DNA of 32,000 nt from Nitratidesulfovibrio vulgaris str. Hildenborough (GTDB taxonomy: Bacteria; Desulfobacterota; Desulfovibrionia; Desulfovibrionales; Desulfovibrionaceae). Of the stretch, positions 10,217-29,201 are shown in pieces. Numbering within the stretch: position 1 is the stretch's first letter; each line of letters opens with the position of its first letter. The notes below the pieces were generated by a model. That model saw only the letters and a program-made list of their open reading frames with translations. It searched no databases and was not told the DNA's origin. The translations under genes were made by a program, and so were the position numbers. Location of the stretch: NCBI RefSeq assembly GCF_000195755.1, contig NC_002937.3, positions 360,001 to 392,000 on the forward strand. The letters are read 5' to 3'.

Positions 10217-11563
10217 CTAGCGTGCGCCCTTGGGGAAGAGGATGACCCCCACGGTCTTGAGGACGATCTGGATGTCGAGCAGGGGCGACATGTTCTTGAT
10301 GTAGTAGAGGTCGTATTCGAGTTTGTAACGGGCGTCCTCCACCGAGGCCCCGTAGGGGTAGCACACCTGCGCCCATCCGGTGATGCCGGGCTTCACCGAG
10401 TGGCGCACGTAGAAGTAGGGGATGACCTTCTCAAGCTGCCGGACGAACTCCATCCGTTCAGGGCGCGGGCCTATCATGCTCATGTCGCCGCGCAGCACGT
10501 TCCACAACTGGGGCAGTTCGTCGATGCGCACCTTGCGGATGAAGCGACCCACGCGGGTGACACGGCTGTCGCCCTTGGTGGCCCATACGGCACCGTCCTT
10601 CTCGGCGTCGGTGCGCATGGAGCGGAACTTGAGCACCATGAACTCCTGCTCGTTGATGCCCACGCGCTTCTGGCGATAGATGACCGGGCCGGGCGACTCC
10701 ATGCGGATGGCGATGGCGGCGACCAGCATGATGGGCGCGGTGGTGATGAGCAAAGAGAGGGAGACGATGACGTCGAACGCGCGTTTGAGACGACGGACGG
10801 AACCCTGCGTATTGAGGTTGAAGCCGTCTTCGGTGAGCAGCCATTCGTCGCGTATCTGGTCGACGGGGATGCGCTTGGCGACGTGTTCGTACAGGGTGCG
10901 GATGTCGACGACCATGAGGCCGCGCAGCTTGGCGTCGAGAAGGTCGCGGGCGATGTCTTCGTCCACGGGTGCGTCGGGCAGCATCACCAGCATGGTGGCA
11001 CCGTAGCGCCGGGCGATTTCGACGGGTTCATAGGGTGCACCAAGGCAGGGGCCCGCATCGGGGTCCACGTCGCCCTCGCCCACATAGCCCAGAATCTCGG
11101 CTTCGGGCATCCCTTCGTTGAGCAGTTTGCGGACACGACCCGCCCTGTCGACACCCACCAGCACCACGCGGGGCCGGGTGGTGAAGCGCTGGCCGAAGCG
11201 GTGGTAGACCATGCGCCACAGCAGCGTCATGCCCACCACGAGCAGGAGCAGCACCACGAAGGTGGTGCGCTCGAAACGCCAGTGTTCGAACGAATAGAAG
11301 GTGAAGCCGGTGAAGATGATGCCGAGCACCGAGGCCACGCTCACGCGGGCGATGCTGTCGCGCACGTCCTCGTGCCCGACGTTGTAGCAGTCGAGCACGT
11401 AGAAGAAGAGCAGGAAGAAGAAGGTGGTGAAGGTGGATGCGCCCGTGTAGTCGACGAGGACGTTGTATTCGGCAGGGAGCATGATCTCGCCCGACACATA
11501 GAGGGCGACGAGGATGCACAGTGCGTCGAGGGCCTGAAAGTAGGCGTTGCGGATGCCGTTCAC
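10217..11563 (-). CDS. Polyprenyl-phosphate glycosyl-1-phosphate transferase (WbaP/EpsB-like initiating sugar transferase), 448 aa
   Basis: The C-terminal bacterial sugar transferase domain has KRAFDVIVSL, PVIYRQKRVG, KFRSM, DELPQLWNVLRGDMSMIGPRPE and KPGITGWAQV. There are N-terminal TM helices and a central Rossmann-like region. I chose the GTG at 11563, which has GGAGG 9 nt upstream and overlaps the upstream stop (GTGA). Confidence 0.85.
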   Translation of the reverse strand: MNGIRNAYFQALDALCILVALYVSGEIMLPAEYNVLVDYTGASTFTTFFFLLFFYVLDCYNVGHEDVRDSIARVSVASVLGIIFTGFTFYSFEHWRFERTTFVVLLLLVVGMTLLWRMVYHRFGQRFTTRPRVVLVGVDRAGRVRKLLNEGMPEAEILGYVGEGDVDPDAGPCLGAPYEPVEIARRYGATMLVMLPDAPVDEDIARDLLDAKLRGLMVVDIRTLYEHVAKRIPVDQIRDEWLLTEDGFNLNTQGSVRRLKRAFDVIVSLSLLITTAPIMLVAAIAIRMESPGPVIYRQKRVGINEQEFMVLKFRSMRTDAEKDGAVWATKGDSRVTRVGRFIRKVRIDELPQLWNVLRGDMSMIGPRPERMEFVRQLEKVIPYFYVRHSVKPGITGWAQVCYPYGASVEDARYKLEYDLYYIKNMSPLLDIQIVLKTVGVILFPKGAR

Positions 11564-12705
11564 TGGGGATTGCCTCCGGCGCGGGGGGCGGCGTCGAGCC
11601 GCATGACCCGCATGATGTGTGCGGCGACCTTCTCCGCGTCGAACTCCCGTTCGGCGAGGTCGCGTCCTGCCCGGCCCATGCGCTGCACGAGGGACGGGTC
11701 TTCGATGAAACGTTCCATGGCTGCGGCGAGGGCTTCGGGTGAGCGCAAGGGCACCATGAAGCCGTTGACGCCGTCTTCGACCACCTCGCGGCAGCCGGGT
11801 GCGTCGGTGACGATGGCGGCGCGGGCCATGCTCATGCCCTCCATGACGGAACACGGCGTGCCCTCGCGCCACGATGGGAGCACGACGACGCTCGCCTCGC
11901 GCAGGAAGGGCCGAACGTCGCGCGTCTGGCCCATGTATTCGATGACACCTTCGCGGTGCCACTGGTTGATGGTCTCCATGGGTACGCTGCCAAGCCCCTG
12001 CTCGGGCGGGCCCAGCACCCTGAAGCGGGCTTCGGGGTGGCGCGCCTTGAGCATGCGTGCGGCTTCGGCATACTCATAGAGGCCCTTGGCCTCAATGAGT
12101 CTGCCTACCAGCAGGAAGGTGACGGGGGCGGTGACGGTCTCGGCAGGGGCGAAATGGTCGAGGGCCACCCCCGTGCCGCGGCTCATGGCCACTTCGGTTC
12201 CCGCCGGGACGATGCCCTTTGCGGTGAACACGGCCCTGTCCTCCTCGTTCTGGAAGAAGACGGTGTGCACACAGGCGAGGGCTGCGCGGTACATGAGCAC
12301 CGCGACCCTGTTCAGCAGGCGTTTGACGGGGGTGTCGGCCTCGAACATGTAGCCGAGCCCCGTGATCATGGCGACGCGCCCCGGAACGCGGGCCAGCGCG
12401 GCGGCGGTGGCACCGTAGATGACGGGCTTGATGGTGAAGCAGAAAAGCCTGTCGGGGCGTTCCTGCCTGAAGATGCGATAGAGTGCCGCGAAGGTGGCGA
12501 CGTCACGCACGGGGTTGAGACCCTTGCGGTCGAGCGGGTAGTGGCGCACGCGCACACCCATGGAGGTCAGGGCTGCGTCACCCTCGGCGTCACCGGGAGG
12601 GATGATGCACACCACGGTGTGCCCATCGGCCTGAAGGCGCGCGATGAACACGCTCCAGAAATTGACCATGGCCCGGGCCTGATTGCCCAGAATGGCGACG
12701 TTCAT
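11560..12705 (-). CDS. Family-1 (GT4-like, GT-B) glycosyltransferase, 381 aa
   Basis: It begins MNVAILGNQARAMVNFW and has a C-terminal EGTPCSVMEGMSMARAAIVTDAPGCREVVEDGVNG (EX7E-type retaining GT-B motif). I used the internal ATG of ORF 11560..12948 because the upstream extension is not protein-like. Confidence 0.8.
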   Translation of the reverse strand: MNVAILGNQARAMVNFWSVFIARLQADGHTVVCIIPPGDAEGDAALTSMGVRVRHYPLDRKGLNPVRDVATFAALYRIFRQERPDRLFCFTIKPVIYGATAAALARVPGRVAMITGLGYMFEADTPVKRLLNRVAVLMYRAALACVHTVFFQNEEDRAVFTAKGIVPAGTEVAMSRGTGVALDHFAPAETVTAPVTFLLVGRLIEAKGLYEYAEAARMLKARHPEARFRVLGPPEQGLGSVPMETINQWHREGVIEYMGQTRDVRPFLREASVVVLPSWREGTPCSVMEGMSMARAAIVTDAPGCREVVEDGVNGFMVPLRSPEALAAAMERFIEDPSLVQRMGRAGRDLAEREFDAEKVAAHIMRVMRLDAAPRAGGNPQ

Positions 12706-12799
12706 GTCGCGCCGGCCTCGCTTGCTGCGGTGAGAAGACAAGGCGGGAGGGCGCGGTACGCCCGCGCCGGATGATGCTCCCCCCTCATCCGAGTTGCGC

Positions 12800-12828
12800 A
12801 GTATAGCAGGTGCGGAGATGCCTGAAAA
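12800..12828 (-). promoter_or_regulatory. Candidate sigma-70 promoter for the GT4 / sugar-transferase operon
   Basis: The minus strand reads TTTTCA-17 nt-TATACT. It lies about 95 nt upstream of the ATG at 12705. Confidence 0.35.
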
Positions 12829-12995
12829 GAGGGAGAAAACCGGGTGCCCCGGCCTCCGGTATGGCTGTGGTGACGGGGGCTGCGTCCGGGGCTTCGTGTG
12901 GCAGTCCCGACTCATTGCGGTGGGTTCATTGCAGGGGACACATCGCAACGGGCATCAGCCCCGGCAGGCGTGGCCAGCCGCATCGCCCTGCTGCT

Positions 12996-18973: not shown

Positions 18974-20569
18974 GTGATGCCCCTGCGCCTGCACCACCGC
19001 GCCCTTCTCGCCCTGTACGGCGCCGTCTGGCGTCTCGCCCGCCCCGTGCTCGCTCGGAATCGTCGACTCGCCCACCGCTTCGAGGAACGGCTGGTGCCCC
19101 GTCAGTGGGCGACGCCCGTCGATGTGTGGGTGCAGTCGGCTTCGGGGGGCGAATCGTATCTCGCATGGGAACTGCTGAAGGCGTTGCCTGTGGCGGTTGC
19201 GCAGGACGCTGGCGTGGGTATGGCAGACAGGCCGGGTGGCCGTGCCGAAGGGGGAACGCAACCCGGTAGCTGTGGCGACGTCCATAACGGCATGGGGACT
19301 GCCACCCCCTCGGGATGTCGGGCTGATGGGGCGGGTATGCCACCTGTGCGGAAGGTGCTTCTCACATCCTGCACGGAACAGGGACTCGACGTGCTGCACA
19401 AGGCGGTGGCATGGGCGGCTGATGAACGGCCCGACCTTGATGTGCAGGTGCAGGTCTTCCCCTTCGACGAACCGTATCTCATGGGCGAGGCGCTGGCACA
19501 GGCGAAGCCACGCGCCGTCGTCCTGCTGGAGACGGAATTGTGGCCCGGGCTTCTTGCAGCCTGCACGGTCGCCGGCATCCCCGTTGGGGTGGTCAATGGG
19601 CGCATGACGCCGCCCAGCCTTGCCGCGTATCTTGCCATTGAGGGCTTCTGGCAGGCCGTGGGGCCGTGTCGCGTCGCCGCCATGAGCGATGATGACGCCA
19701 TGCGCTTCGCCCTGCTTCTGGGCAGGCGTGCAGGCGCGGACGGTGTGGACGTGATGCCGAACATGAAGTTCGACCGCGTGGTGCCGGACGTCGTAGCGTC
19801 TTCGGGGGCGTCAAGCGCTGAAGCGCATGGGAACGCCGCGAAGTGCGATGCGGTGCCGCCTTGCACCGGGGGTGGTGCGTTGTCGGGCACAGGGGGGACC
19901 GTCGCCGGTGGCAGGCCGGATGCCGATGCACCGGGCACTCCCGCCCCCATGGGCGAGGTGCTGCGCGAGGGGGCGTCCCTCGTCGTCTTCGGGTCTGTGC
20001 GCGAAGAGGAAGAGACGGCCCTTCTGTCCGTGCTGCTTCGACTGCGTGACGAACGTCCACGTACGGACATCGCCATCGCACCACGGCACATGCACCGCGT
20101 CGAGGCATGGTGCCACATGATGCGTCATGCGGGCATCACGCCCGTGCTTCGGTCGTCGCTCACGACGCCTCCTGCACCCGGCGCGGTCATCGTGTGGGAC
20201 ACCTTCGGCGAACTGGGCGCGCTGTATGCCGCGGCCCGTGCGGTGTTCGTGGGTGGCAGCCTCGCGCCTCTGGGGGGGCAGAACTATCTCGAACCGCTCG
20301 CCCGTGGCGTCGTGCCCTGCGTGGGGCCGTATCTTGGCAACTTCGAGTGGATAGGGGACGCCTTGCGCCAGCAGGGGCTGGTGCAGGTCGTGCCCGATGC
20401 CGATGCCCTCGCCGGGGCGCTGCTGGGTCAACTCGAACGCCCCATGCCGCGTGACAGGGTGCTCGAACGGTTCATGGCGTGGGCCGAACCCCGGCGCGGG
20501 GGGGCCTTGCGTGCCGTGCAGGTCGTGGAAGAACTGCTGGCGATGCCTACGCAACAGGGCGACCGCTAG
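18974..20569 (+). CDS. waaA: 3-deoxy-D-manno-octulosonic acid (Kdo) transferase with two low-complexity insertions (531 aa from GTG 18974; ATG at 18977 possible)
   Basis: It is collinear with WaaA/GT30: VWVQSASGGESYLA (compare E. coli SVSVGET), LLETELWPGLL, VNGRM, APRHMHR (compare PRHPERF), DTFGELGALYAAARAVFVGGSL and GGQNYLEP (compare GGHNPLEAA). GGAGGAG lies at the start. Confidence 0.85.
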   Translation: MMPLRLHHRALLALYGAVWRLARPVLARNRRLAHRFEERLVPRQWATPVDVWVQSASGGESYLAWELLKALPVAVAQDAGVGMADRPGGRAEGGTQPGSCGDVHNGMGTATPSGCRADGAGMPPVRKVLLTSCTEQGLDVLHKAVAWAADERPDLDVQVQVFPFDEPYLMGEALAQAKPRAVVLLETELWPGLLAACTVAGIPVGVVNGRMTPPSLAAYLAIEGFWQAVGPCRVAAMSDDDAMRFALLLGRRAGADGVDVMPNMKFDRVVPDVVASSGASSAEAHGNAAKCDAVPPCTGGGALSGTGGTVAGGRPDADAPGTPAPMGEVLREGASLVVFGSVREEEETALLSVLLRLRDERPRTDIAIAPRHMHRVEAWCHMMRHAGITPVLRSSLTTPPAPGAVIVWDTFGELGALYAAARAVFVGGSLAPLGGQNYLEPLARGVVPCVGPYLGNFEWIGDALRQQGLVQVVPDADALAGALLGQLERPMPRDRVLERFMAWAEPRRGGALRAVQVVEELLAMPTQQGDR

Positions 20570-20769: not shown

Positions 20770-22110
20770 TCAGGCTTTGGTGCCTTCCGCGCGTGCCATG
20801 TCCCTGAAGAAGGCCAACAGCGGTGCTTCGCATCCTTCTTCGACCACGCAGGGCCAGTTGATCACTTCGCGTCCCGTCCGTTCCGAGACGGGGCAACGTC
20901 CCTCTGCATAGCCGAGGCTGTCGAGGCCGTGGGTGGCCCCCAGCACGGGCACCGTGAACCACGTCCACGCGGTGTGGACGCGTGCGTCCATGCGTGCGCG
21001 ATGGCGGTCGGCGTCGGGGTGGCGATAGGCCAGCCTGTGGCCCACGATGTCACGCCGGGGGTCGCGGTAGGACTCCGGCAGCAGTGCCTCGAGTGGGGTG
21101 TCGTGTGCCGCGTCGAGATAGGCGGCAAGCAGGGCCCTGCGGCGCGTGGCTTCGCGTGGCCAGCGGTCGAGTTCGTACAGGCCGAGGCGTGCCAGCATGG
21201 CGGGCATCCGCGCCGGGAAGGGATAGGCCCCCGTGCGTTCGACGGTGTAGTCGTCATCGAGGAAGGTCATGCCCGTCTTGAGCACACGGCGCGTCAGCGA
21301 ACGCAGGAGCATGGCGCACTGGTACGCCCCGTAGCTTCCGGGTCTGGCAAGGCGGCGTTCGAGGCGCAACTGGCCGATGATGCGGCGTTGCTGTTCCTCT
21401 GGCAGCGTCGGCAGGGTGCGGACGGTGCGGTCGACCTCTTCCTGCAAGCCCGCATCGCGGGTGTAGAGCACACCTCCCACGAGGGTGTTGAGCGGTTTGG
21501 AGTGGTCGGTGGAGAAGAAGGCCGCGTCGCCGAAGTTGCCAACAGTGACGCCGTCGAGGGTCGAACCCAGCGTGAGGGCGCAGTCCTCGATGAGCGCGAT
21601 ACCTTTGGCCGAGGTGATGGCGCGTAGTTCGTCCACCCGGCACGGGATGCCGAAGCTGTGCTGGGCGATGACGGCGCGGGTGCGCGGCGTGAGGGCCCTT
21701 TCCACGGCTTCGGGGCTGGTGCCGAACGTGGCGGGGTCGACATCGGTGAACACCGGGGTCGCCCCGGTACGCAGTACCGCGCTGGCGACCACCGCGCAGG
21801 TGAATCCCGGCAGCACCACCTCATGCCCTGCGCCTACGCCAAATGCCTTGAGCGCCGTGAAAAGTGCCATGCGTCCGCCTGCCAGTGCACGGGCCTGCCC
21901 GTCGCCCACCACGGCGGCGAAGGTGCGTTCGAAGGCGCCCATGACGGATTCGGCCTGTGCGGGGTCGTCCTTGGCGCGTTCCACTTCGGACATCTGCGCA
22001 TCGGTGAGATGGGCGTGCCCGGTGACGAATCCGTAGTAGGGCCGGGTGAGCACCATGCGCCCCAGAAGGGCGAGGCGACCGGCCACGGCGGCGAGACGTG
22101 CTGTGCTCAT
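20770..22110 (-). CDS. DegT/DnrJ/EryC1/StrS-type PLP-dependent sugar aminotransferase-like protein, 446 aa (longer than typical)
   Basis: It has FERTFAAVVGDGQARALAGGRMALFTAL, GHEVVLPGFTCAVVASAV, GATPVFTDVDPATF, IALIEDCALTLGS and FFSTDHSKPL (candidate PLP lysine). GGGAGGA lies upstream of the ATG at 22110. Its start overlaps the upstream stop (ATGA). Confidence 0.75.
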   Translation of the reverse strand: MSTARLAAVAGRLALLGRMVLTRPYYGFVTGHAHLTDAQMSEVERAKDDPAQAESVMGAFERTFAAVVGDGQARALAGGRMALFTALKAFGVGAGHEVVLPGFTCAVVASAVLRTGATPVFTDVDPATFGTSPEAVERALTPRTRAVIAQHSFGIPCRVDELRAITSAKGIALIEDCALTLGSTLDGVTVGNFGDAAFFSTDHSKPLNTLVGGVLYTRDAGLQEEVDRTVRTLPTLPEEQQRRIIGQLRLERRLARPGSYGAYQCAMLLRSLTRRVLKTGMTFLDDDYTVERTGAYPFPARMPAMLARLGLYELDRWPREATRRRALLAAYLDAAHDTPLEALLPESYRDPRRDIVGHRLAYRHPDADRHRARMDARVHTAWTWFTVPVLGATHGLDSLGYAEGRCPVSERTGREVINWPCVVEEGCEAPLLAFFRDMARAEGTKA

Positions 22111-24023
22111 GCGTCCTCCCTGTCGCCGGACTGCGTCTGCGGTGACGTCATGCCCAGCAGGGCGCGCCAGCGCGGAAGTGTCTTGTCGAGGGCGAGAAAG
22201 TCGTCGGGCAGGTCGGGTGAACGCGGCGCGGCGAGTGCGGCGGCAAGTCCCTCTGCATCCTTGACGAAGGTCATGCCGGGTACACCAAGCAGCGGGCACA
22301 TGTTGAAGTCGTTCTCCGCCACCTGCACCACCAGCGGCAGCCCCTTGCAGGCGGCTTCGAGGGCCACGGTGGTGGAGTTGGACGCCCAGACGACGGTGCC
22401 GGGCACCAGAAGTTCAGGCACGGGGGTGTTCGATACGGCGGGGATGCCGCCCTCTGCGAAGCGTGCCGCCAGTCTGCCTTCCACAGGCAGGTTGGGGTGC
22501 GGCTTGACCACCACCTCATAGCCTGCCAGCAGCCCCTTGCGGGCTGCATCCGCAAGAACGTCAAGCTGGTTGTCGGTCTCGTCCGGGAAGAAGCTGGTCA
22601 TCACCAGCAGCCGGGGCGTTGTTCCCGGCAACGGGGCGGCTTCGTGCGGTGTCAGCCGCGTCTGTCCCGCGAGGTAGAGGTAGCGCAGTGCCTCGATGGT
22701 GGCGAGGCGGTCTTCGGGCATTCCCGCATCGCGCATGGCGCGGAGTGCCCCGCTGCCGTTGCAGCAGATGCGGTCGGGCAGGGTGGCTGCGGCATCGGGT
22801 TCGGTGAACGCTCGCGGGTCTTCGTAGTAGCGCAGGTCGGTGGGGCGCACCGTGGAGTGCTGCGTACCGAATACCGGGCCGAGACCCCGTTCATGCATGG
22901 CATGGGCGAGTGCCTTCTCCCACGGGTGATTCTCCATGGGGAAGATGGCCCATTCCTGCGGGGTGGGCTGCTGCGCCGCCATGCGGCGGAAGGCCACGCG
23001 CATGAGGTGCCGTTGCAGCCCAAGCCAGCCGCGTGTCGCATCGGCCCAGTTGCGGGACATGTAGGGCCAGAACGGCATGTTCGACCCCGGCAGACGGCAG
23101 CGCGAGGCCACCAGCCCTTCCACGCCAAGACCGCGTAGGGCGATGCGGCAGTAGTCCGCCACGGCGCGGGCGATGGCGGCGGCGGGCAGGAATTCTTCGA
23201 TGAAATGGAAGGCGATGCCGTCGCGCCCGTTGCGACGCAGGGTGTCACGAAGCGCGATGGCTTCGCCCAGCGTGAAGTGCGGCGTCGGTTCGAAGATGAA
23301 CAGCCACGTGACACCGTGGGTGCCTTCGCCAAGCGCGTCGTGCAGGCTTTCCCAGTAGCGTGAACGCAGACGCCCTTCACGGGCGGCCTTCACGTCCACA
23401 TTGGGGAAATAGGTGGCGATGGTGCCGGGGCGGGGGTGCGCGGGCAGTGTACCCTTGAAGGCGGGCAGATGGCGCTTCTCGCGCAGCAGCCATGCGCCAA
23501 GGCGGGCCACGGCCTTGACCGGTGCGGGAAGCCGTTCGTAGATGCCACGAATCGAAAGGTCGAGGGTGCGCCCCTTTCCGGCGGGGCGATGGGCGAACAC
23601 GCGCCCGGTGAGGCGGCAGAAGTCGCGCAGGCACGCCACCAGCGCGGCGTCATCGGTGCGCACCTCAAGGCGGCGGTAGTCGTGTTCCTCGATATGCAGT
23701 TCAAGGGCGCGCAGCTTCACCACTTCATAGAGGTGACGGCATATCTTGGGATGCTTCTCGGCCAGCGGCGTCATCCACCAGTGCGAGAAGGTATCTCCGA
23801 CGGCAAGGAGGTCGCGTAGGGTGGCGCCGCCCTTGCCTACAGGGGAAAGCCCCATGTCGTGCGCCCATGTGATGTACTCGCGGCGCAGGCGGGTGAAATG
23901 CGTCTCCACCAGCGCGGGGACGGATACATGCCCTTCGGCTACGGACATGCGTGTCCAGTGGGCGATGTCCATGCCGAGGGGCAGCGACGGCGCGTCACCG
24001 TCGAGCAGAAGCAGGGTGTTCAA
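22107..24023 (-). CDS. Large orphan polysaccharide-biosynthesis protein (about 638 aa); the C-terminal half looks like a GT-B Rossmann domain with a KPHP motif
   Basis: The frame is long with high GC3. I chose the TTG at 24023 (GGGAG 5 nt upstream), and ATG alternatives lie downstream (MDIAHW...). The C-terminal LLVMTSFFPDETDNQLDVLADAARKGLLAGYEVVVKPHPNLPVEG...VVWASNSTTVALEAACKGLPLVV resembles nucleotide-sugar-binding domains of GT-B enzymes. I cannot assign the N-terminal about 400 aa to any family by eye. Confidence 0.6.
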   Translation of the reverse strand: MNTLLLLDGDAPSLPLGMDIAHWTRMSVAEGHVSVPALVETHFTRLRREYITWAHDMGLSPVGKGGATLRDLLAVGDTFSHWWMTPLAEKHPKICRHLYEVVKLRALELHIEEHDYRRLEVRTDDAALVACLRDFCRLTGRVFAHRPAGKGRTLDLSIRGIYERLPAPVKAVARLGAWLLREKRHLPAFKGTLPAHPRPGTIATYFPNVDVKAAREGRLRSRYWESLHDALGEGTHGVTWLFIFEPTPHFTLGEAIALRDTLRRNGRDGIAFHFIEEFLPAAAIARAVADYCRIALRGLGVEGLVASRCRLPGSNMPFWPYMSRNWADATRGWLGLQRHLMRVAFRRMAAQQPTPQEWAIFPMENHPWEKALAHAMHERGLGPVFGTQHSTVRPTDLRYYEDPRAFTEPDAAATLPDRICCNGSGALRAMRDAGMPEDRLATIEALRYLYLAGQTRLTPHEAAPLPGTTPRLLVMTSFFPDETDNQLDVLADAARKGLLAGYEVVVKPHPNLPVEGRLAARFAEGGIPAVSNTPVPELLVPGTVVWASNSTTVALEAACKGLPLVVQVAENDFNMCPLLGVPGMTFVKDAEGLAAALAAPRSPDLPDDFLALDKTLPRWRALLGMTSPQTQSGDREDA

Positions 24024-24096
24024 GGCGACTCCCGGTGGAGTGGCGGCTTGCGCCGCGGTGCGTTGCGGGCCGCGCAAAGGCGCGGCCCGTTGATGG

Positions 24097-24738
24097 TCAG
24101 TCGGCAGCGAGGGTCTCAAGCCATGCGGAAAGTCCGGTGAGGTCGTCACCCCACGGATGCGTTCCTCCCGCGAAGGTGTCGCCGCGCCCGTAGAACAGTG
24201 TGCCCACATCCTCCGCGGCGCGCAGGTCGGTCTTGCTGTCGCCGACCATCACCGTGGTGGCGGGGTCGACATCAGCCAGTTTCACGACCTTGGCGAGCAG
24301 TTCGGACTTGCCGGGAGGCGAACCGTAGATGCCCGCGAAGAAGCGCGACAAGCCGCGCTCGTGCAGGATGTGCGTCAACTCCTCATGGGGTGCGCCGGAG
24401 CACACGTACATGGGGACGCACCCGTGCCATGCGGTGATGGCGTCGTAGGCACCGGGAACGAGTTGGGCGTTGAGGACGCCCTCGAAGGCGTATTCGGCGT
24501 AACGGCGACCCAGTTCATTGAGTTCGTCGCTGCTGATTTCGCGACCGAGAACCTCGCGGAACATCCACTCGAACTTCTTGTAGCGGCTCACTCCGCCGTT
24601 TTCGAGGTGGTAGGCCACCAGCCTGTCGCGAACCTCGCAACCGAAGGGTTCGGCGACGCGCGCGAAGGCTTCGGTCTTCACGTTCACGCTTTCGAGAATG
24701 ACGCCGTCGCAGTCGAAGACGATGCAGGAAAGGGGCAT
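24097..24738 (-). CDS. HAD-superfamily (subfamily IA-like) phosphatase, 213 aa
   Basis: MPLSCIVFDCDGVILES carries the DxDG nucleophile motif. It also has CSGAP (motif II region) and VMVGDSKTDLRAAEDVG (motif IV). AGGAG lies upstream. It is the C-terminal part of ORF 24097..25800. Confidence 0.85.
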   Translation of the reverse strand: MPLSCIVFDCDGVILESVNVKTEAFARVAEPFGCEVRDRLVAYHLENGGVSRYKKFEWMFREVLGREISSDELNELGRRYAEYAFEGVLNAQLVPGAYDAITAWHGCVPMYVCSGAPHEELTHILHERGLSRFFAGIYGSPPGKSELLAKVVKLADVDPATTVMVGDSKTDLRAAEDVGTLFYGRGDTFAGGTHPWGDDLTGLSAWLETLAAD

Positions 24739-24767
24739 GGAACTCCTCTTGAGTGGGGTGCTGGCGA

Positions 24768-25673
24768 TCAGCCCTTGAGGGCGTCGAGCAGGTTGCGGAT
24801 GGTGTCGGTCTCCATGCGGATGCGGGCTTCCACGGCGTAGGAACCCACATGCGGCGTGAGGATGACGTTGGGCAGGTCGCGCAGCGGGCCGGTGTAGGGC
24901 TCCTGTTCGAAGACGTCCAGCGCCGCACCGGCTAGGCGGCCCGAGGCGAGGGCGTCGTGCAGTGCGGCTTCGTCCACGAGTCCGCCGCGCGCGGCGTTGA
25001 TGAGCCATGTGCCTTCGCGCATGAGGCCGAGACGCGTGGCGTCGATGAGATGACCGCCGCCAGCGGGCTTCGAGCAGTGCAGCGAGATGATGTCGGCCCA
25101 GCCCATGAGGGCGTCCATTTCCATCTTCTGGTGGGTGGCGTCCTCTGCGTAGGGGTCGGAGAAGGCGACTTCTGCACCGAAGGCTTCGAAGAGGCGCGCC
25201 GTGGCACGACCGATGCGGCCGAAGCCGACAAGGCCCACCTTCTTGCCGTTGAGCAGGTTGCCCATGCGCTTCTTCCACGTGCCGCCGCGCAACTCGTGGT
25301 CCATGCGCGTGACCTGCCGCATGAGGTCGAGGGCGTAGCCCAGCGTGAGTTCGGCCACGGCGAGGGTGGGGCCGTCGGGCGTGTTGCGCACGGCGATGCC
25401 CTTCTCTTCGGCGGCGACCCGGTCGACGCTGTCCATGCCCGTGCCGCAGCGGGAGATGACCTTGAGGCCCGGCAGGGCGTCCATGACGCGGCGGGTGAGG
25501 GGTTCGGTACCCGCAGCCACGCCCACGCAGCCCTGCAGGATGTCGATGGCCTCGTCTTCGGTGAGGGCGCGGCCCGTGGTGTTCAGAACGTACTCGATAC
25601 CCGCCTCGCGCAGCAGGTCCAGCGGTGCGTCGCTGAACTTGGCGAAGGAGGATGTGGTGATGGCGATCTTCAT
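24768..25673 (-). CDS. D-isomer-specific 2-hydroxyacid dehydrogenase family protein (PGDH/GyaR-like), 301 aa
   Basis: It begins MKIAITTSSF and has GKKVGLVGFGRIGRATARLFEAFGAEV (NAD-binding GxGxxG), INAARGGLVDEAAL and the C-terminal NVILTPHVGS (catalytic His). AAGGAAG lies upstream of the ATG at 25673. Confidence 0.85.
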   Translation of the reverse strand: MKIAITTSSFAKFSDAPLDLLREAGIEYVLNTTGRALTEDEAIDILQGCVGVAAGTEPLTRRVMDALPGLKVISRCGTGMDSVDRVAAEEKGIAVRNTPDGPTLAVAELTLGYALDLMRQVTRMDHELRGGTWKKRMGNLLNGKKVGLVGFGRIGRATARLFEAFGAEVAFSDPYAEDATHQKMEMDALMGWADIISLHCSKPAGGGHLIDATRLGLMREGTWLINAARGGLVDEAALHDALASGRLAGAALDVFEQEPYTGPLRDLPNVILTPHVGSYAVEARIRMETDTIRNLLDALKG

Positions 25674-25815
25674 GTCGCTTCCTTTGCGTCCGGCTGTGCC
25701 GGATAGTCGTTGTGGCGGTGTCGCTTCGGCGGGTGCTCGGCGTCTTCGCGACGCAGCCACCCCCATACCTGACCACGCGGCCGCACGGGGCGGCTGGCAT
25801 CAGGCCGGGCGAGAC

Positions 25816-26409
25816 CTATTCTGCGGGGCCGCGCCTGCGGATGAACCGTGCGGGTACGCCCGCGACCACGGTGTAGGGTTCCACGTCCTTCGTGACGACG
25901 GCACCCGCCCCCACCACGGCCCCGCGCCCGATGTGCACGCCGGGCACCACGGTGCAGTTGGCGGCTATCCATACGTCATCGTCGATGACGACTTCGCCGT
26001 ATTCGTGCCCCTGGAACATGATGGGGGTGTCGAGCCTGTCGAAACGGTGGTTGGCGGCGCGAATGACGGTGCCGGGGCCCACGGTGGCGTGTGCGCCGAT
26101 GCGGACGGTGCCGCCGTCGGCGTCCACCACCACGTTGATGTTCAGCGCGGCGTTCTCGCCCATGACGAGTTCACCCGTGCGGGCGTAGAGGTGGCACCCC
26201 TTGCCGAGGCGTACGCCGTCGGCAAGGCGCATGTGCCCCGCGCCCTGAAGCGTGAGCGACTGCCCGAAGCGCACCTTGCCGCACACGCCGCCGAGAAGCC
26301 TGAACAGCGGACGCCACGCCACGAGACGCACCGCCGTGCCGAGCACGGTGGGCACCCACGCGAAGAGGGCGAACCACAGTTCTTCGAGAAAGACGGCGCA
26401 ACGAGCCAT
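25816..26409 (-). CDS. Left-handed beta-helix (hexapeptide-repeat) acyl/acetyltransferase, 197 aa
   Basis: Hexapeptide repeats are present (VRIGAHATVGPGTVI, VVIDDDVWIAANCTVVPGVHIGRGAVVGAGAVV), ending VVAGVPAR. The N-terminus is hydrophobic. Confidence 0.8.
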   Translation of the reverse strand: MARCAVFLEELWFALFAWVPTVLGTAVRLVAWRPLFRLLGGVCGKVRFGQSLTLQGAGHMRLADGVRLGKGCHLYARTGELVMGENAALNINVVVDADGGTVRIGAHATVGPGTVIRAANHRFDRLDTPIMFQGHEYGEVVIDDDVWIAANCTVVPGVHIGRGAVVGAGAVVTKDVEPYTVVAGVPARFIRRRGPAE

Positions 26410-26418
26410 GCGTTTGTC

Positions 26419-27189
26419 CTACTTCGTGTAGACGGCGCGCAGGGTGTCTTCGCGCATCATTTCGATGACACGTGCGAGGTCTTCAGCCGTGTCGACGCTG
26501 AGGGTGCGCTTGTCGGTGGGCACCATGCGCACCTTCTCGCCGTGTTCGAGGATGCGCATCATGTCCACCGACTCGATGATCTCGAGCGGGCTTTCCTGCA
26601 TCTCGTTGAACTTGAGCAGATAGTCGCGGCGGAAGGGGATGATGCACACCTGCTTGCGCATGGGCACTTCGGTGACGCCCTTCTTGCGCGAAGGCACAGG
26701 CTCGCGCGAGAAGTAGAGCGCGTCGTTGTTGAAGTCCACCACGACCTTGACTTCGTTGGGGTCTTCGAACTCGGCCACGGTCTCCATCTCGGCCATGAGG
26801 TTGACAACGTTGATGGACGGGTCTTTCAGCATGGGTTCGATGGCGGCGTCAATCATGTCGGGGGTGACCATGGGTTCGTCACCCTGCACCATGACCACGA
26901 TGTCGGCCTTGCGGCCCGTGGCCTCTTCGATCTTGAGCATGGCCTCTGCGGTTCTGGTGGTGCAGCGCACATGGTGGTCGCCGGTCATGACGGCCTTGAG
27001 GCCCACGCTTTCGGCGTAGTCGTATATCTCCTTGTCGCAGGTGGCGACATAGGTCTCGGTGAGGCACTTGCTCATGGCGGTGCGGAAGGTCACATGGCCC
27101 ACCATGGGCACGCCGTGGATGTCTGCCATGGGCTTGCCCGGAAAACGGCTGGAGCCCATGCGGGCGGGGATGATGGCTATGATGTTCAT
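26419..27189 (-). CDS. KdsB/NeuA-family cytidylyltransferase (CMP-ulosonic acid synthetase-like), 256 aa
   Basis: MNIIAIIPARMGSSRFPGKP is the P-loop-like CTP-binding signature of CMP-Kdo/CMP-NeuAc synthetases. It also has VVMVQGDEPMV and SVDTAEDL. AAGGAG lies upstream of the ATG at 27189. Confidence 0.85.
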   Translation of the reverse strand: MNIIAIIPARMGSSRFPGKPMADIHGVPMVGHVTFRTAMSKCLTETYVATCDKEIYDYAESVGLKAVMTGDHHVRCTTRTAEAMLKIEEATGRKADIVVMVQGDEPMVTPDMIDAAIEPMLKDPSINVVNLMAEMETVAEFEDPNEVKVVVDFNNDALYFSREPVPSRKKGVTEVPMRKQVCIIPFRRDYLLKFNEMQESPLEIIESVDMMRILEHGEKVRMVPTDKRTLSVDTAEDLARVIEMMREDTLRAVYTK

Positions 27190-27290
27190 GATGTCGCTCC
27201 TTGCGGCATTGTGTCGTTCTTGGGGTATGCCCGGTCGTTTCCGGGTGTCACTGTGTGCCCCTGCATGTCCCTGACGGCCCTTGCCTGCGC

Positions 27291-27328
27291 CTGTTTGCAC
27301 CTGTTCGCACCTGTTCGCACCTGTTCGT
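27291..27328. repeat. Four tandem copies of a 10-bp unit (ctgtt[t/c]gcac; minus strand GTGCGAACAG)
   Basis: Read directly: ctgtttgcac ctgttcgcac ctgttcgcac ctgttcgt. It lies in the gap between the SDR gene and the cytidylyltransferase gene. Confidence 0.95.
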
Positions 27329-27356
27329 CAGGGCAGATGCGATGCGCCGGTTATCA

Positions 27357-27392
27357 GGTCGTCTCCCCGGTGGTCTCCCCGGTCGTCTCTGG
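27357..27392. repeat. Three tandem copies of a 12-bp unit (ggtcgtctcccc / ggtggtctcccc / ggtcgtctctgg) running into a G8 homopolymer (27391-27398)
   Basis: Read directly from the sequence. Confidence 0.95.
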
Positions 27393-27457
27393 GGGGGGCG
27401 GCCTCCGGGCTGGTGCGCCTTGCGGCGGTGGGGGGTGCCCGGGCACGAGTGTACCAG

Positions 27458-27492
27458 CCGTGCCGGGCGCGTATGGACGGCACCCGGCACGG
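27458..27492 (-). terminator. Stem-loop immediately downstream of the SDR gene stop
   Basis: ccgtgccggg-15 nt-cccggcacgg forms a 10-bp perfect stem 10 nt past the stop at 27502. A second short palindrome, gtgcccgggcac, lies at about 27435-27446. Confidence 0.4.
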
Positions 27493-27501
27493 CGGCGAAG
27501 T

Positions 27502-28416
27502 CTATTCGTCCTTGCTGACCAGATACCCGCCCACGTCGTGCATGTCGGGGTGCATCTCGCGGTGCACGTCCTCCATCACGCGCAGGATGCCCTGTCCGAG
27601 GTCTGTCGTCAGGATGGGCGTCATCTTCTTGCCCACCTTGGGCATGAAGGCATACGGCGTTATCTGGTAGTGCCCGCTGTTGGGGTCGTGCTGGTAGACG
27701 ACCTCGATGTCCTTGCCGAGCATCTCGCCTATCATCTTGAACAGGTCGCCCACGCGCATGGGCTGGTTGCCCGAGAGGACGATGTTCTCGTTGGCGTATT
27801 CCGGCTTCAGCACCTCCACGGTGCACAGGGCCGCATCCTCGACGTGGATGTACTCGCGCAGCGCCGTGGGGCTGCCGTAGTAGGTGATGGCGCCCTTCTC
27901 CAGCGCCTCGGCCACGAAGCGGTTGATGGCGTTGCGGATGTCGGCACGCGAACCGTAGAGCGAACCGTAGCGCAGGATGGTGTAATCGAGACCGTGCATG
28001 GCCTGATAGTTCTCGATGTACAGTTCGCACGCCTGCTTGCTGCAACGGTAGAACCCGCCCGACTTGCCGTACACGTACAGCGAACTGGCGAAGACGTAGC
28101 GCTTCACCCCGGCCTTGCGGCAGGCTTCCAGCGCGATGACGTTGCCAAGCACGTTGATGCGCGCGGTGTCGACCGGGCGGCGGTTGGCCTCGCCGATGTC
28201 GGCGATGCCCGCGTAGTTGAAGACCATGTCCGCGCCTTCCACGGCACGGGCAACCAGTTCCTCGTCGAGGATGTTGCCGGTGATCATGGTCTGGTCGGGA
28301 CGAAGGTAGGGCGAGGGCCGCAGGTCGACCACGGTCACGTCATGCCCGGCCTCGGAAAGCTTGTCGCACACATGTGAGCCGAGAAAACCGGCTCCGCCGA
28401 AGAGCGTTATCTTCAT
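27502..28416 (-). CDS. NAD-dependent epimerase/dehydratase (extended SDR), 304 aa
   Basis: MKITLFGGAGFLGSHVCDKL carries GxxGxxG. It also has FASSLYVYG and FYRCSKQACE (YxxxK). It starts 2 nt after the aldolase stop, and it is the C-terminal part of ORF 27502..29142. Confidence 0.85.
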   Translation of the reverse strand: MKITLFGGAGFLGSHVCDKLSEAGHDVTVVDLRPSPYLRPDQTMITGNILDEELVARAVEGADMVFNYAGIADIGEANRRPVDTARINVLGNVIALEACRKAGVKRYVFASSLYVYGKSGGFYRCSKQACELYIENYQAMHGLDYTILRYGSLYGSRADIRNAINRFVAEALEKGAITYYGSPTALREYIHVEDAALCTVEVLKPEYANENIVLSGNQPMRVGDLFKMIGEMLGKDIEVVYQHDPNSGHYQITPYAFMPKVGKKMTPILTTDLGQGILRVMEDVHREMHPDMHDVGGYLVSKDE

Positions 28417-28418
28417 GG

Positions 28419-29201
28419 TCACTTCCGTTCTGCTGTAGGGGCGGGGCACTGTGCCCCGTGGTAGAGGAACACGGCGTCGATGCCGTAGGCGATGAAGCGG
28501 TAGCCTTCGGCCACCTTGGCGCGTACCAGCGCCTCGTCCGGCTGGACGATGTGCAGGCCCATGGGCACGCCGTGTGCCACGGCCTTGTCGCGGATGCGGT
28601 CGAGCGCGGCCTTGAAATCGGGGTGGTCGAACTGTGCCGTCAGCCCCATGGACCCGGAAAGGTCGTAGGGGCCGACCATGATGGCGTCGAGGCGCGGGTG
28701 CGCGAGGATGGCGTCGAGGTTCTCCACGGCGCGGATGTGCTCTATCTGGGCCACGAACACGAGGTCGCGCGCGGTGGTGTTGCGGTAGGCGTCGAACTCG
28801 CGGCCGAAGAGGTTGCCCCGGCAGTAGCCCACGCCGCGGATGCCCGAAGGCCCGTCGGTGCGCGGGTACAACGCCCATCCGATGGCGGCGTCGAGTTGTT
28901 CGCGCGTTTCGATCATGGGAAAGATGATGCCGTGTGCGCCCGAATCGAGCGCGGCCTTGATGTCGGTCAGCGTCGCTTCGGCCACGCGGGCGAACGGTGC
29001 CGTGCCGCCGAGTTCGATGGCGCGGAACAGGTCGGGCAGCATGGCGCGGGTGAAGGCGGCGTGCTCGAGGTCGACCGCCACCCAGTCGTACCCGGCGCGG
29101 CCCAGTATCTCGGCCACGTCGGTGGAGGGCAGTTGCATCCATGTGCCGATGGTGGCTTCGCCCCGTTGCATCTTGGAGCGGATATCGTGTGCGGTAGTCA
29201 T
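28419..29201 (-). CDS. HpcH/HpaI-family class II (pyruvate-dependent) aldolase, 260 aa
   Basis: It has GTWMQLPSTDVAEILGRAGYDWVAVDLEHA, GIIFPMIETREQL, FVAQIEHIRAVENLDAI and AIMVGPYDLS, the divalent-metal and pyruvate-binding motifs of HpcH/HpaI/GarL-type aldolases. Confidence 0.85.
   Translation of the reverse strand: MTTAHDIRSKMQRGEATIGTWMQLPSTDVAEILGRAGYDWVAVDLEHAAFTRAMLPDLFRAIELGGTAPFARVAEATLTDIKAALDSGAHGIIFPMIETREQLDAAIGWALYPRTDGPSGIRGVGYCRGNLFGREFDAYRNTTARDLVFVAQIEHIRAVENLDAILAHPRLDAIMVGPYDLSGSMGLTAQFDHPDFKAALDRIRDKAVAHGVPMGLHIVQPDEALVRAKVAEGYRFIAYGIDAVFLYHGAQCPAPTAERK

Follow-up and report, generated by a model that had tools for sequence, protein, structure and literature searches.

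To our knowledge, every known route to a 2-ulosonic acid activated with cytidine monophosphate (CMP), whether it leads to Kdo (3-deoxy-D-manno-octulosonate), 2-keto-3-deoxy-nononic acid (Kdn), sialic, legionaminic or pseudaminic acid, builds the carbon chain by a phosphoenolpyruvate (PEP)-dependent synthase. The window considered here, that is the whole stretch of DNA that was analysed (32 kb of contig NC_002937.3, positions 360,001 to 392,000), contains eight minus-strand genes running in one direction at 20770–29201, which encode, in order of transcription, an HpcH/HpaI-family aldolase, an extended short-chain dehydrogenase/reductase (SDR), a KdsB-family cytidylyltransferase (hereafter KdsB'), a hexapeptide acyltransferase of left-handed beta-helix (LbH) type, a 2-hydroxyacid dehydrogenase, a HAD phosphatase, a TIGR04326-family protein and a DegT-type aminotransferase, as listed in Table 1. 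We hold it to be somewhat more probable than its negation that this cluster is the Desulfovibrionaceae version of a widespread surface-glycan cassette, which would make a non-Kdo CMP-2-ulosonic acid by means of an aldolase and with no PEP-dependent synthase. An undescribed route to an activated acidic sugar seems probable because the core of aldolase and KdsB' recurs across phyla without the usual synthase, and from this recurrence and the comparisons below we infer the chemical steps, the identity of the product and its destination.

Related loci were collected by a scan with an alignment of the KdsB' clade, taking one genome per species, which yielded 80 loci at 65–89% identity. Genes were then counted with the window proteins as queries, and only in loci with enough flank, namely 31 loci of Desulfovibrionaceae and nine loci of other taxa (Syntrophales, Sulfurimonas, Sulfurovum, Arcobacteraceae, Thiovulum and other Campylobacterales, and Endonucleobacter). 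Six-frame tblastn searches of the 32-kb window with E. coli KdsA, E. coli NeuB and the NeuB of strain G20 returned only noise (E ≥ 0.1), in agreement with the original prediction, made from the letters alone, that no PEP-dependent synthase is visible there, and the E. coli KdsC and KdsD queries gave equally only noise in the window (E ≥ 0.1). Similarity to KdsA was found in none of the 83 related loci; among the counted loci KdsA and KdsC are each present in 0/31 Desulfovibrionaceae and 0/9 other taxa, KdsD in 0/31 and 1/9, and a NeuB-like gene lies within 10 kb of KdsB' in 3/31 and 4/9. In seven loci a separate NeuA/PseF-like cytidylyltransferase adjoins the NeuB-like gene, and in three Campylobacterota loci the NeuB-like gene is close to the locus start, where a partner gene just outside is possible. 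A NeuB- or KdsA-type synthase that always accompanies the cassette, which the original prediction had named as an outcome that would speak against it, was therefore not observed, as KdsA never occurs and NeuB occurs only sometimes, with its own NeuA-like partner in seven loci.

Different levels of conservation were observed for the genes of the cassette. About 20 of the 80 loci carry labels outside Desulfovibrio or Desulfovibrionaceae, including Syntrophales, Desulfobacula, Sulfurimonas, Sulfurovum, Arcobacteraceae, Thiovulum, Isosphaeraceae, Endonucleobacter and a genome of the candidate phyla radiation (CPR). The aldolase stands beside KdsB' in 29 of the 31 Desulfovibrionaceae loci and in all nine loci of other taxa, and the SDR is present in every locus of both sets (31/31 and 9/9); the LbH gene was found in 28/31 and 5/9, the HAD gene in 24/31 and 8/9, the dehydrogenase gene in 7/31 and 9/9, a full-length TIGR04326 gene in 2/31 and 1/9, and the DegT gene in 1/31 and 2/9. 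The pairing of aldolase and KdsB' was also seen in shorter contigs labelled Isosphaeraceae and Desulfobacteraceae and in one CPR contig, and in the other phyla the aldolase gene often lies 33–80 nucleotides from the KdsB' gene or overlaps it by 4 nucleotides. The order aldolase, SDR, KdsB', LbH, dehydrogenase and HAD is kept in O. alaskensis G20 and one further genome, while the usual order outside Desulfovibrionaceae is aldolase, KdsB', methyltransferase, variable genes, dehydrogenase, SDR, PF04199 "cyclase" and HAD, with a Wzx-type flippase upstream. The waaA gene, which encodes a Kdo transferase and runs convergently to the cassette in the window as originally predicted, adjoins the cassette only in the window and its near-identical contigs and was found in 0/31 and 0/9 of the counted loci; this unconserved adjacency had been taken as a sign that the product goes to lipopolysaccharide (LPS), and a destination argued from it was rejected.

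Some further features were observed in the loci of other taxa. Methyltransferase and radical SAM genes are inserted in cassettes outside Desulfovibrionaceae, a PF04199 "putative cyclase" gene lies between the SDR and HAD genes in both loci scanned (L088, 15058–15702; L063, 13891–14553), and an open reading frame (ORF) of the same size occupies the equivalent position in L078 (15677–16375). L080, a 2.9-kb contig of a Candidatus Moraniibacteriota metagenome-assembled genome (MAG), contains an aldolase gene, a KdsB' gene (67% identity) and an LbH gene, and could reflect either real gene transfer to a lineage that has no LPS or faulty binning.

The three loci of the sister clade, whose KdsB' relatives are 52–55% identical, come from a deltaproteobacterial MAG, Scalindua and a marine contig. 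The aldolase gene is immediately upstream and overlaps that of KdsB' by 4 nucleotides in two of the three, and none was called beside KdsB' in the deltaproteobacterial MAG. Downstream follow genes for a methyltransferase (2/3), a GFO/IDH/MocA oxidoreductase, a SIS_2 sugar-phosphate isomerase, an Inositol_P-family phosphatase in place of the HAD enzyme (2/3) and a 2-hydroxyacid dehydrogenase; a full TIGR04326 protein is encoded in two of the three (the deltaproteobacterial MAG and Scalindua), with DegT after it in one. The set of isomerase, C–C bond former, phosphatase and cytidylyltransferase thus follows the logic of the Kdo pathway (KdsD, KdsA, KdsC and KdsB), with the aldolase in the place of KdsA.

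The cytidylyltransferase KdsB' is 77–89% identical across Desulfovibrionaceae. Of 1.84 billion cluster representatives searched exhaustively, 1,000 had E ≤ 1e-30, and 123 full-length proteins among the best 150 representatives were aligned with E. coli KdsB. More than 100 of these 123 carry a pattern unlike that of canonical KdsB (E. coli numbering): S-G at 74–75 is replaced by R followed by C, A or S (R-C in the window protein), N at 96 is replaced by M, positions 180–181 read K-Q so that H at 181 gives way to Q, Y at 185 is replaced by I or M (I in the window protein), and E-Q at 210–211 is replaced by D-M. The representatives with this pattern are 35–64% identical to the window protein and 27–37% identical to E. 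coli KdsB. Both the KdsB' and the canonical groups keep R10, R15, K19, Q98, D100 and D235, the residues for triphosphate and Mg, and the few canonical representatives in the list, together with KpsU and Coxiella KdsB, retain the E. coli residues. Judged from this alignment KdsB' is a distinct, large and deep clade of the KdsB family, and it is proposed to be the CTP-dependent activator of the sugar acid of the cassette. In a model of E. coli KdsB based on its crystal structure, Y185 and Q98 hold the C5 hydroxyl of Kdo, and 5-deoxy-Kdo is no substrate of the enzyme (PMC12199768).

The strongest alternative is that KdsB' is a true CMP-Kdo synthetase, either the housekeeping enzyme or a KpsU-like extra copy serving a Kdo-containing capsule or glycan, and that the aldolase is not its supplier; we regard this as unlikely. 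KdsB' passes the cut-offs of two NCBIfam "KdsB" subfamily models (NF009905, 346 against 255 bits; NF003952, 271 against 193 bits) and barely misses that of the kdsB equivalog TIGR00466 (151.9 against 155.2 bits), and all 13 of its closest solved structures are CMP-Kdo synthetases, the best being E. coli KpsU (E 1e-41). The window places waaA next to the cassette; E. coli capsule clusters contain a sugar-phosphate isomerase and KpsU without KdsA; and one sister-clade locus has a Capsule_synth (KpsC/KpsS-like) gene and an ABC transporter. However, KpsU keeps the canonical H/Y/E-Q signature that KdsB' lacks, the waaA adjacency is absent from all 31 assessable relatives, and an identity of 65–69% between the KdsB' proteins of Desulfovibrionaceae and Campylobacterota, with the aldolase co-travelling, is the pattern expected of a mobile accessory cassette. 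Nor does a CMP-Kdo synthetase explain why the aldolase and KdsB' genes are so close to each other and sometimes overlap.

The genetics of Desulfovibrio bear on the same alternative. The cassette of D. vulgaris Hildenborough is presumably DVU0338–DVU0343, and in the literature DVU0338 is the HAD gene and DVU0341 is kdsB; both were matched to the window genes without alignment, DVU0341 having the same length of 771 nucleotides as the window gene. According to Supplementary Table 5 of PMC10102598, central insertions were recovered in DVU0341 at 77 positions with a wild-type transposon library, at 105 with that of JW710 and at 53 with an older one, and the gene is classed as non-essential in both essentiality analyses, while pyrG in the same table has one insertion position. 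The read counts of the DVU0341 insertions are reduced in that table, which suggests that they carry a fitness cost. The many insertions tolerated, and the dispensability that they indicate, are unexpected of a sole source of CMP-Kdo.

The aldolase has its best solved-structure match in E. coli GarL (1DXE, E 1e-36), whose His50, Arg75, Glu153 and Asp179 all align to identical aldolase residues. Against the catabolic equivalogs it reaches 146 bits for HpaI (cut-off 369), 137–142 for GarL (393–407) and 116 for RhmA (441), and because these scores are far below the cut-offs it is not an orthologue of HpaI, GarL or RhmA. In the loci inspected its context consists of glycan genes with no catabolic operon, so that a purely catabolic aldolase, the other outcome that would have counted against the original prediction, was not found either. 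That the aldolase lies in glycan clusters next to a cytidylyltransferase implies that it works in the direction of synthesis, and the enzyme is proposed to carry out the C–C bond-forming step.

Among the remaining enzymes of the cassette, the SDR reaches no NCBIfam equivalog (GalE, 79 against 262 bits; LegB, 68 against 475; PseB, 36 against 408). The longest NCBIfam alignments of the LbH protein are to WbbJ (15–184 of 192 model positions) and the WcaF family, and only its C-terminal repeats match NeuD (61 against 161 bits), so that it is probably an O-acetyltransferase. DegT is below the cut-offs of LegC (111 against 420 bits), PseC (106 against 424 bits) and ArnB. A pathway of legionaminic or pseudaminic type, whose enzyme logic had been read into the SDR, DegT, acetyltransferase and cytidylyltransferase by the original prediction, was accordingly rejected, since there is no synthase and no component reaches an equivalog cut-off. 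In NCBIfam the dehydrogenase matches phosphoglycerate dehydrogenase best (TIGR01327; 214 bits, cut-off 454), and the phosphatase exhibits no similarity to E. coli KdsC. The genes of these two enzymes are usually adjacent although the phosphatase family differs between the clades, which suggests successive steps.

A second alternative starts from the aldolase and the dehydrogenase, which might together make a short dihydroxy or keto acid (for example a 2,4-dihydroxy acid from pyruvate and a small aldehyde) as a non-sugar substituent, N-acyl or ether-linked, on an amino sugar made by DegT, with KdsB' activating an unrelated compound or an atypical acid. By HpcH chemistry, an aldolase step and then a D-2-hydroxyacid dehydrogenase step would suit the formation of 2,4-dihydroxy acids, the PF04199 "cyclase", methyltransferases and radical SAM enzymes outside Desulfovibrionaceae suit a tailored small acid, and the DegT aminotransferase is coupled to a GT-B protein. 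We nevertheless think this improbable: an enzyme of KdsB type needs a hemiketal hydroxyl beside the carboxylate, and reduction of the 2-oxo group would remove it; most gut Desulfovibrio cassettes (L015–L047 and others) have no dehydrogenase and yet retain the aldolase, SDR, KdsB', LbH and HAD genes; and no other member of the cassette is as constant or as well conserved as the cytidylyltransferase.

The dehydrogenase is annotated as serA in several resources, and the phosphatase was once put forward as the missing serB of D. vulgaris (PMC5764234). In the same study mutants of D. vulgaris Miyazaki DvMF_1902, the dehydrogenase counterpart (identified not by alignment but by lying beside the HAD gene DvMF_1903 and by being annotated serA), had no phenotype in minimal medium, the D. 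vulgaris HAD counterparts, DvMF_1903 among them, which were matched by family and position, failed to complement serB of E. coli, and a strain deleted for DVU0338 grew in defined medium (PMC5764234). A serine-pathway (SerA/SerB) role for the dehydrogenase and phosphatase was rejected because of these results, and the view that housekeeping genes (serA, a phosphoserine phosphatase gene, kdsB and a catabolic aldolase gene) have come together here by chance is very improbable and already largely refuted by the cited data, the gene set being in addition syntenic across phyla and the aldolase below all catabolic equivalog cut-offs.

The 638-residue protein, described as an orphan in the original prediction, is a member of TIGR04326 ("surface carbohydrate biosynthesis protein"; 901.6 bits, cut-off 250, model positions 1–602) with at least 167 homologues, and it has no Pfam match. 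Its AlphaFold2 model, built with 44 homologues, has a mean predicted local distance difference test (pLDDT) score of 91.3 and exhibits a GT-B fold of two Rossmann domains. Foldseek with this model retrieved many GT-B glycosyltransferases, together with UDP-GlcNAc 2-epimerases and a capsule polymerase resembling TagF, with E values down to 6e-9 and template-modelling scores of only 0.3–0.6, while sequence and profile searches against solved structures gave no match. K507-x-H509-P510 and, about 40 residues downstream, N549-S-T-T552 are invariant in the TIGR04326 homologues, and these KPHP and NSTT motifs may be CMP-binding. By hhalign the H-P and S-T motifs are aligned with those of E. coli KpsS (37% probability, E 3.6e-4) and, at below 2% probability, with the same motifs of NeuS and KpsC; no similarity to NeuE was found. 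On its modelled fold the protein is a probable glycosyltransferase, and the motifs suggest that it is possibly CMP-sugar dependent.

In the window the TIGR04326 and DegT genes share 4 nucleotides, where the stop of the former runs into the start of the latter. In O. alaskensis G20 (L006, 14801–18271) a protein of 1156 residues has a C-terminal part that is the DegT orthologue (53% identity) and an N-terminal part that weakly matches TIGR04326, and this fusion links the TIGR04326 and DegT genes of the window functionally. The pairing of the two is also present in L092 and L088, and in some Desulfovibrionaceae the TIGR04326 gene is away from the cassette, directly after a gene for an mtnA-type S-methyl-5-thioribose-1-phosphate isomerase (L004, 8903–12028; L005, 8931–12106). 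A full TIGR04326 member follows the cassette in Syntrophales; in Thiovulum a TIGR04331 "LIC12162 family transferase" is upstream of it; and the Sulfurimonas, Sulfurovum and Arcobacteraceae loci, together with contigs labelled Isosphaeraceae and Desulfobacula, have downstream proteins of about 500–600 residues with a C-terminal domain that is weakly TIGR04326-like in the nucleotide-binding region. DegT and TIGR04326 are a second, variably placed module, and not part of the conserved core. No mention of TIGR04326, LIC13510 or TIGR04331 was found in the literature searched, and LIC12162 was met only in a Herbaspirillum genome paper, where the sialic-acid genes neuABC are directly followed by genes for a LIC12162-family transferase and for a "surface carbohydrate biosynthesis protein" of unspecified kind (PMC6679464).

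The following pathway is proposed for the cassette. The HpcH aldolase would first join pyruvate, or possibly hydroxypyruvate, to an aldose or aldose phosphate, giving a 4-hydroxy-2-oxo acid. The HAD phosphatase might then strip the phosphate from this product in the manner of KdsC; alternatively, the phosphoglycerate-dehydrogenase-like enzyme and the phosphatase could turn 3-phosphoglycerate via 3-phosphohydroxypyruvate into hydroxypyruvate, which would explain the coupling of dehydrogenase and phosphatase. HpcH aldolases accept hydroxypyruvate as nucleophile, and its use here would lead to a 3-hydroxylated ("Ko-like") acid instead of a 3-deoxy acid. The SDR may alter a stereocentre or the oxidation state, KdsB' with CTP would couple the acid to CMP and so pull the aldol equilibrium forward, and the LbH enzyme may O-acetylate. 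In the last step the TIGR04326 GT-B protein with its DegT partner would move the acid onto a glycan, and export might be by the Wzx-type flippase encoded nearby. As for the wider claim, that across Desulfobacterota, Campylobacterota, Planctomycetota, Gammaproteobacteria and possibly CPR this pathway builds an undescribed CMP-2-ulosonic acid by an aldolase, that KdsB' is dedicated to it and that TIGR04326 and TIGR04331 are new CMP-ulosonic-acid glycosyltransferases, we see the chances of its being right or wrong as evenly balanced.

Several points weigh against an aldolase-built, non-Kdo product. The equilibrium of aldolase reactions usually lies on the side of cleavage as long as the product is not removed. 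Identity across phyla is 65–69% for KdsB' and only 33–37% for the aldolase, about 30% for the dehydrogenase and 25–30% for the phosphatase, and with such unequal conservation the partners may act on differing substrates across lineages; the dehydrogenase is moreover lost from most gut Desulfovibrio cassettes. NCBIfam places KdsB' above the cut-off in a "KdsB" subfamily model, and among the substituted positions a Kdo contact is documented for Y185 only, H181, E210 and Q211 being presumed contacts on the strength of their conservation in canonical KdsBs. Published annotation treats DVU0341 and Dde_3687 of strain G20 as kdsB, and if the genomes hold no second canonical kdsB, KdsB' must also supply CMP-Kdo. 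The earlier proposal that an aldolase replaces the PEP-dependent synthase in a CMP-ulosonic-acid pathway for a surface glycan fits the cross-phylum neighbourhoods, and the part of it that rested on the legionaminic and pseudaminic analogy is not supported.

The gene models of the window cassette were taken from third-position G+C and from independent gene calls on the near-identical contig L001, in addition to the ORF listing, because the G+C content of the window is high (about 66%) and spurious ORFs are numerous. Families were assigned by Pfam and NCBIfam profile scans, in which the Pfam matches of the cassette proteins are strong (E 1e-14 to 1e-54), the 638-residue protein excepted; the eight co-directional genes and their families are thereby confirmed as originally described. 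An open frame of 1010 residues on the plus strand (25345–28377), antisense to four cassette genes, is regarded as a high-G+C artefact because it has no family match and because of the codon-position G+C of the antisense frame.

Table 1. Genes and intergenic gap of the cassette in order of transcription, with the convergent neighbour (positions in the window)
Feature	Position	Strand	Length and evidence
HpcH/HpaI-family class II (metal-dependent) pyruvate aldolase	28419–29201	-	260 aa; PF03328 E 9e-31, 107 bits against cut-off 25
Extended SDR/epimerase	27502–28416	-	304 aa; PF01370 E 2.5e-45
Intergenic gap	27190–27501	-	312 nt; hairpin and two tandem repeats
KdsB' (CTP_transf_3 cytidylyltransferase)	26419–27189	-	256 aa; PF02348 E 6e-44
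Hexapeptide (LbH) acyltransferase	25816–26409	-	197 aa; PF00132
D-isomer-specific 2-hydroxyacid dehydrogenase	24768–25673	-	301 aa; PF02826 and PF00389
HAD-IA family phosphatase	24097–24738	-	213 aa; PF00702 and PF13419
TIGR04326-family protein, GT-B fold (predicted)	22107–24023	-	638 aa; TIGR04326 901.6 bits
Divergent DegT/DnrJ/EryC1-family aminotransferase	20770–22110	-	446 aa; PF01041 E 3.5e-51
waaA (Kdo transferase), convergent neighbour outside the conserved cassette	18977–20569	+	Glycos_transf_N PF04413 E 6e-31

The gap between the second and third genes, correctly predicted to be rich in repeats, contains, past the SDR stop codon, a perfect hairpin of 11 bp (about 27457–27493, by inspection of the sequence) and two short tandem repeats detected by Tandem Repeats Finder (10 nucleotides in 3.8 copies and 12 nucleotides in 2.8 copies, at 27290–27327 and 27357–27389). 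Compared with L001 the window has one extra 12-nucleotide unit and two extra 10-nucleotide units, 32 nucleotides in all, just upstream of the cytidylyltransferase gene, and this difference between closely related strains is one of repeat copy number. Conservation of the gap does not extend to other species; an Rfam scan of the cluster including the gap found no family, and a promoter and terminator scan of the cluster gave nothing above chance. The remainder of the window consists of unrelated housekeeping, regulatory and flagellar genes, with one phosphoglycosyl transferase gene (Bac_transf) and one GT4 glycosyltransferase gene at 10217–12954, 8 kb from the cassette and beside a response regulator and a PAS/GAF histidine kinase. 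Just past the high end of the window, L001 (1–4387) contains genes for a Wzx-type flippase (Polysacc_synt) and a further hexapeptide acyltransferase, beyond the chemotaxis receptor gene that bounds the cassette, and the glycan locus may thus continue outside the window.

If the proposed route is true, the use of an aldolase would represent a new biosynthetic solution and an unrecognised acidic sugar would be present on many bacterial surfaces, including those of gut Desulfovibrio, Bilophila and environmental Campylobacterota, and the families TIGR04326 and LIC12162 would gain a first function. The name "3-deoxy-manno-octulosonate cytidylyltransferase" may be wrong for thousands of database proteins, which affects the reconstruction of LPS pathways. 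Literature searches found no paper linking an HpcH aldolase with KdsB or ulosonic acids, and nothing useful on kdsA or kdsB of Desulfovibrio. The question is open to direct test, as transposon and deletion strains of D. vulgaris already exist for the orthologues.

Compared with the CMP-Kdo pathway (KdsD, KdsA, KdsC and KdsB; KpsF and KpsU), the cassette shares a KdsB-family cytidylyltransferase with the CTP and Mg residues, a phosphatase and, in the sister clade, a sugar-phosphate isomerase, and its product would likewise be a CMP-linked 2-ulosonic acid for a GT-B-type transferase. It differs in that KdsA is absent from the window and the 83 loci and an HpcH class II pyruvate aldolase stands as the C–C bond former, that the phosphatase is of HAD-IA or Inositol_P type whereas KdsC is HAD-IIIA, that KdsB' substitutes conserved KdsB and KpsU residues, and that the D. 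vulgaris orthologue is non-essential. With the CMP-nonulosonic acid pathways (N-acetylneuraminic, legionaminic and pseudaminic acids and Kdn) the cassette would have in common a CMP-activated keto acid as end product, and like them it lies among acetyltransferase, aminotransferase and flippase genes in clusters for surface glycans, the Kdn route also employing a phosphatase and a cytidylyltransferase; unlike them, it has no NeuB, LegI or PseI, LegB/PseB, LegC/PseC and NeuD/PglD have no orthologues in its SDR, DegT and LbH proteins, and its cytidylyltransferase is KdsB-like, not NeuA/PseF-like (PseF, 44 against 206 bits). The catabolic aldolases HpaI, GarL and RhmA/YfaU exhibit the same fold, the same His/Arg/Glu/Asp set and a reversible reaction of pyruvate and an aldehyde to a 4-hydroxy-2-oxo acid, but the cassette aldolase reaches less than half of each equivalog cut-off and belongs to a glycan-cluster context. 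The beta-Kdo transferases KpsC and KpsS and the polysialyltransferase NeuS may resemble the TIGR04326 protein in its predicted GT-B fold and in the alignment, at 37% probability at best, of K-x-H-P and N-S-T-T with their H-P and S-T motifs, and the TIGR04331 "LIC12162 family transferase" takes the equivalent place in the Thiovulum cassette; in contrast to KpsC, KpsS and NeuS, the TIGR04326 protein matches no solved structure significantly by sequence or profile, is larger, has a distinct N-terminal half and is coupled or fused to DegT. Because the synthase and a KdsC-type phosphatase are absent and the cytidylyltransferase is under the equivalog cut-off and without the conserved signature, the cassette would stand outside the Kdo and Kdn pathways as a system that, on the sequence comparisons, works like them without being a member of either.

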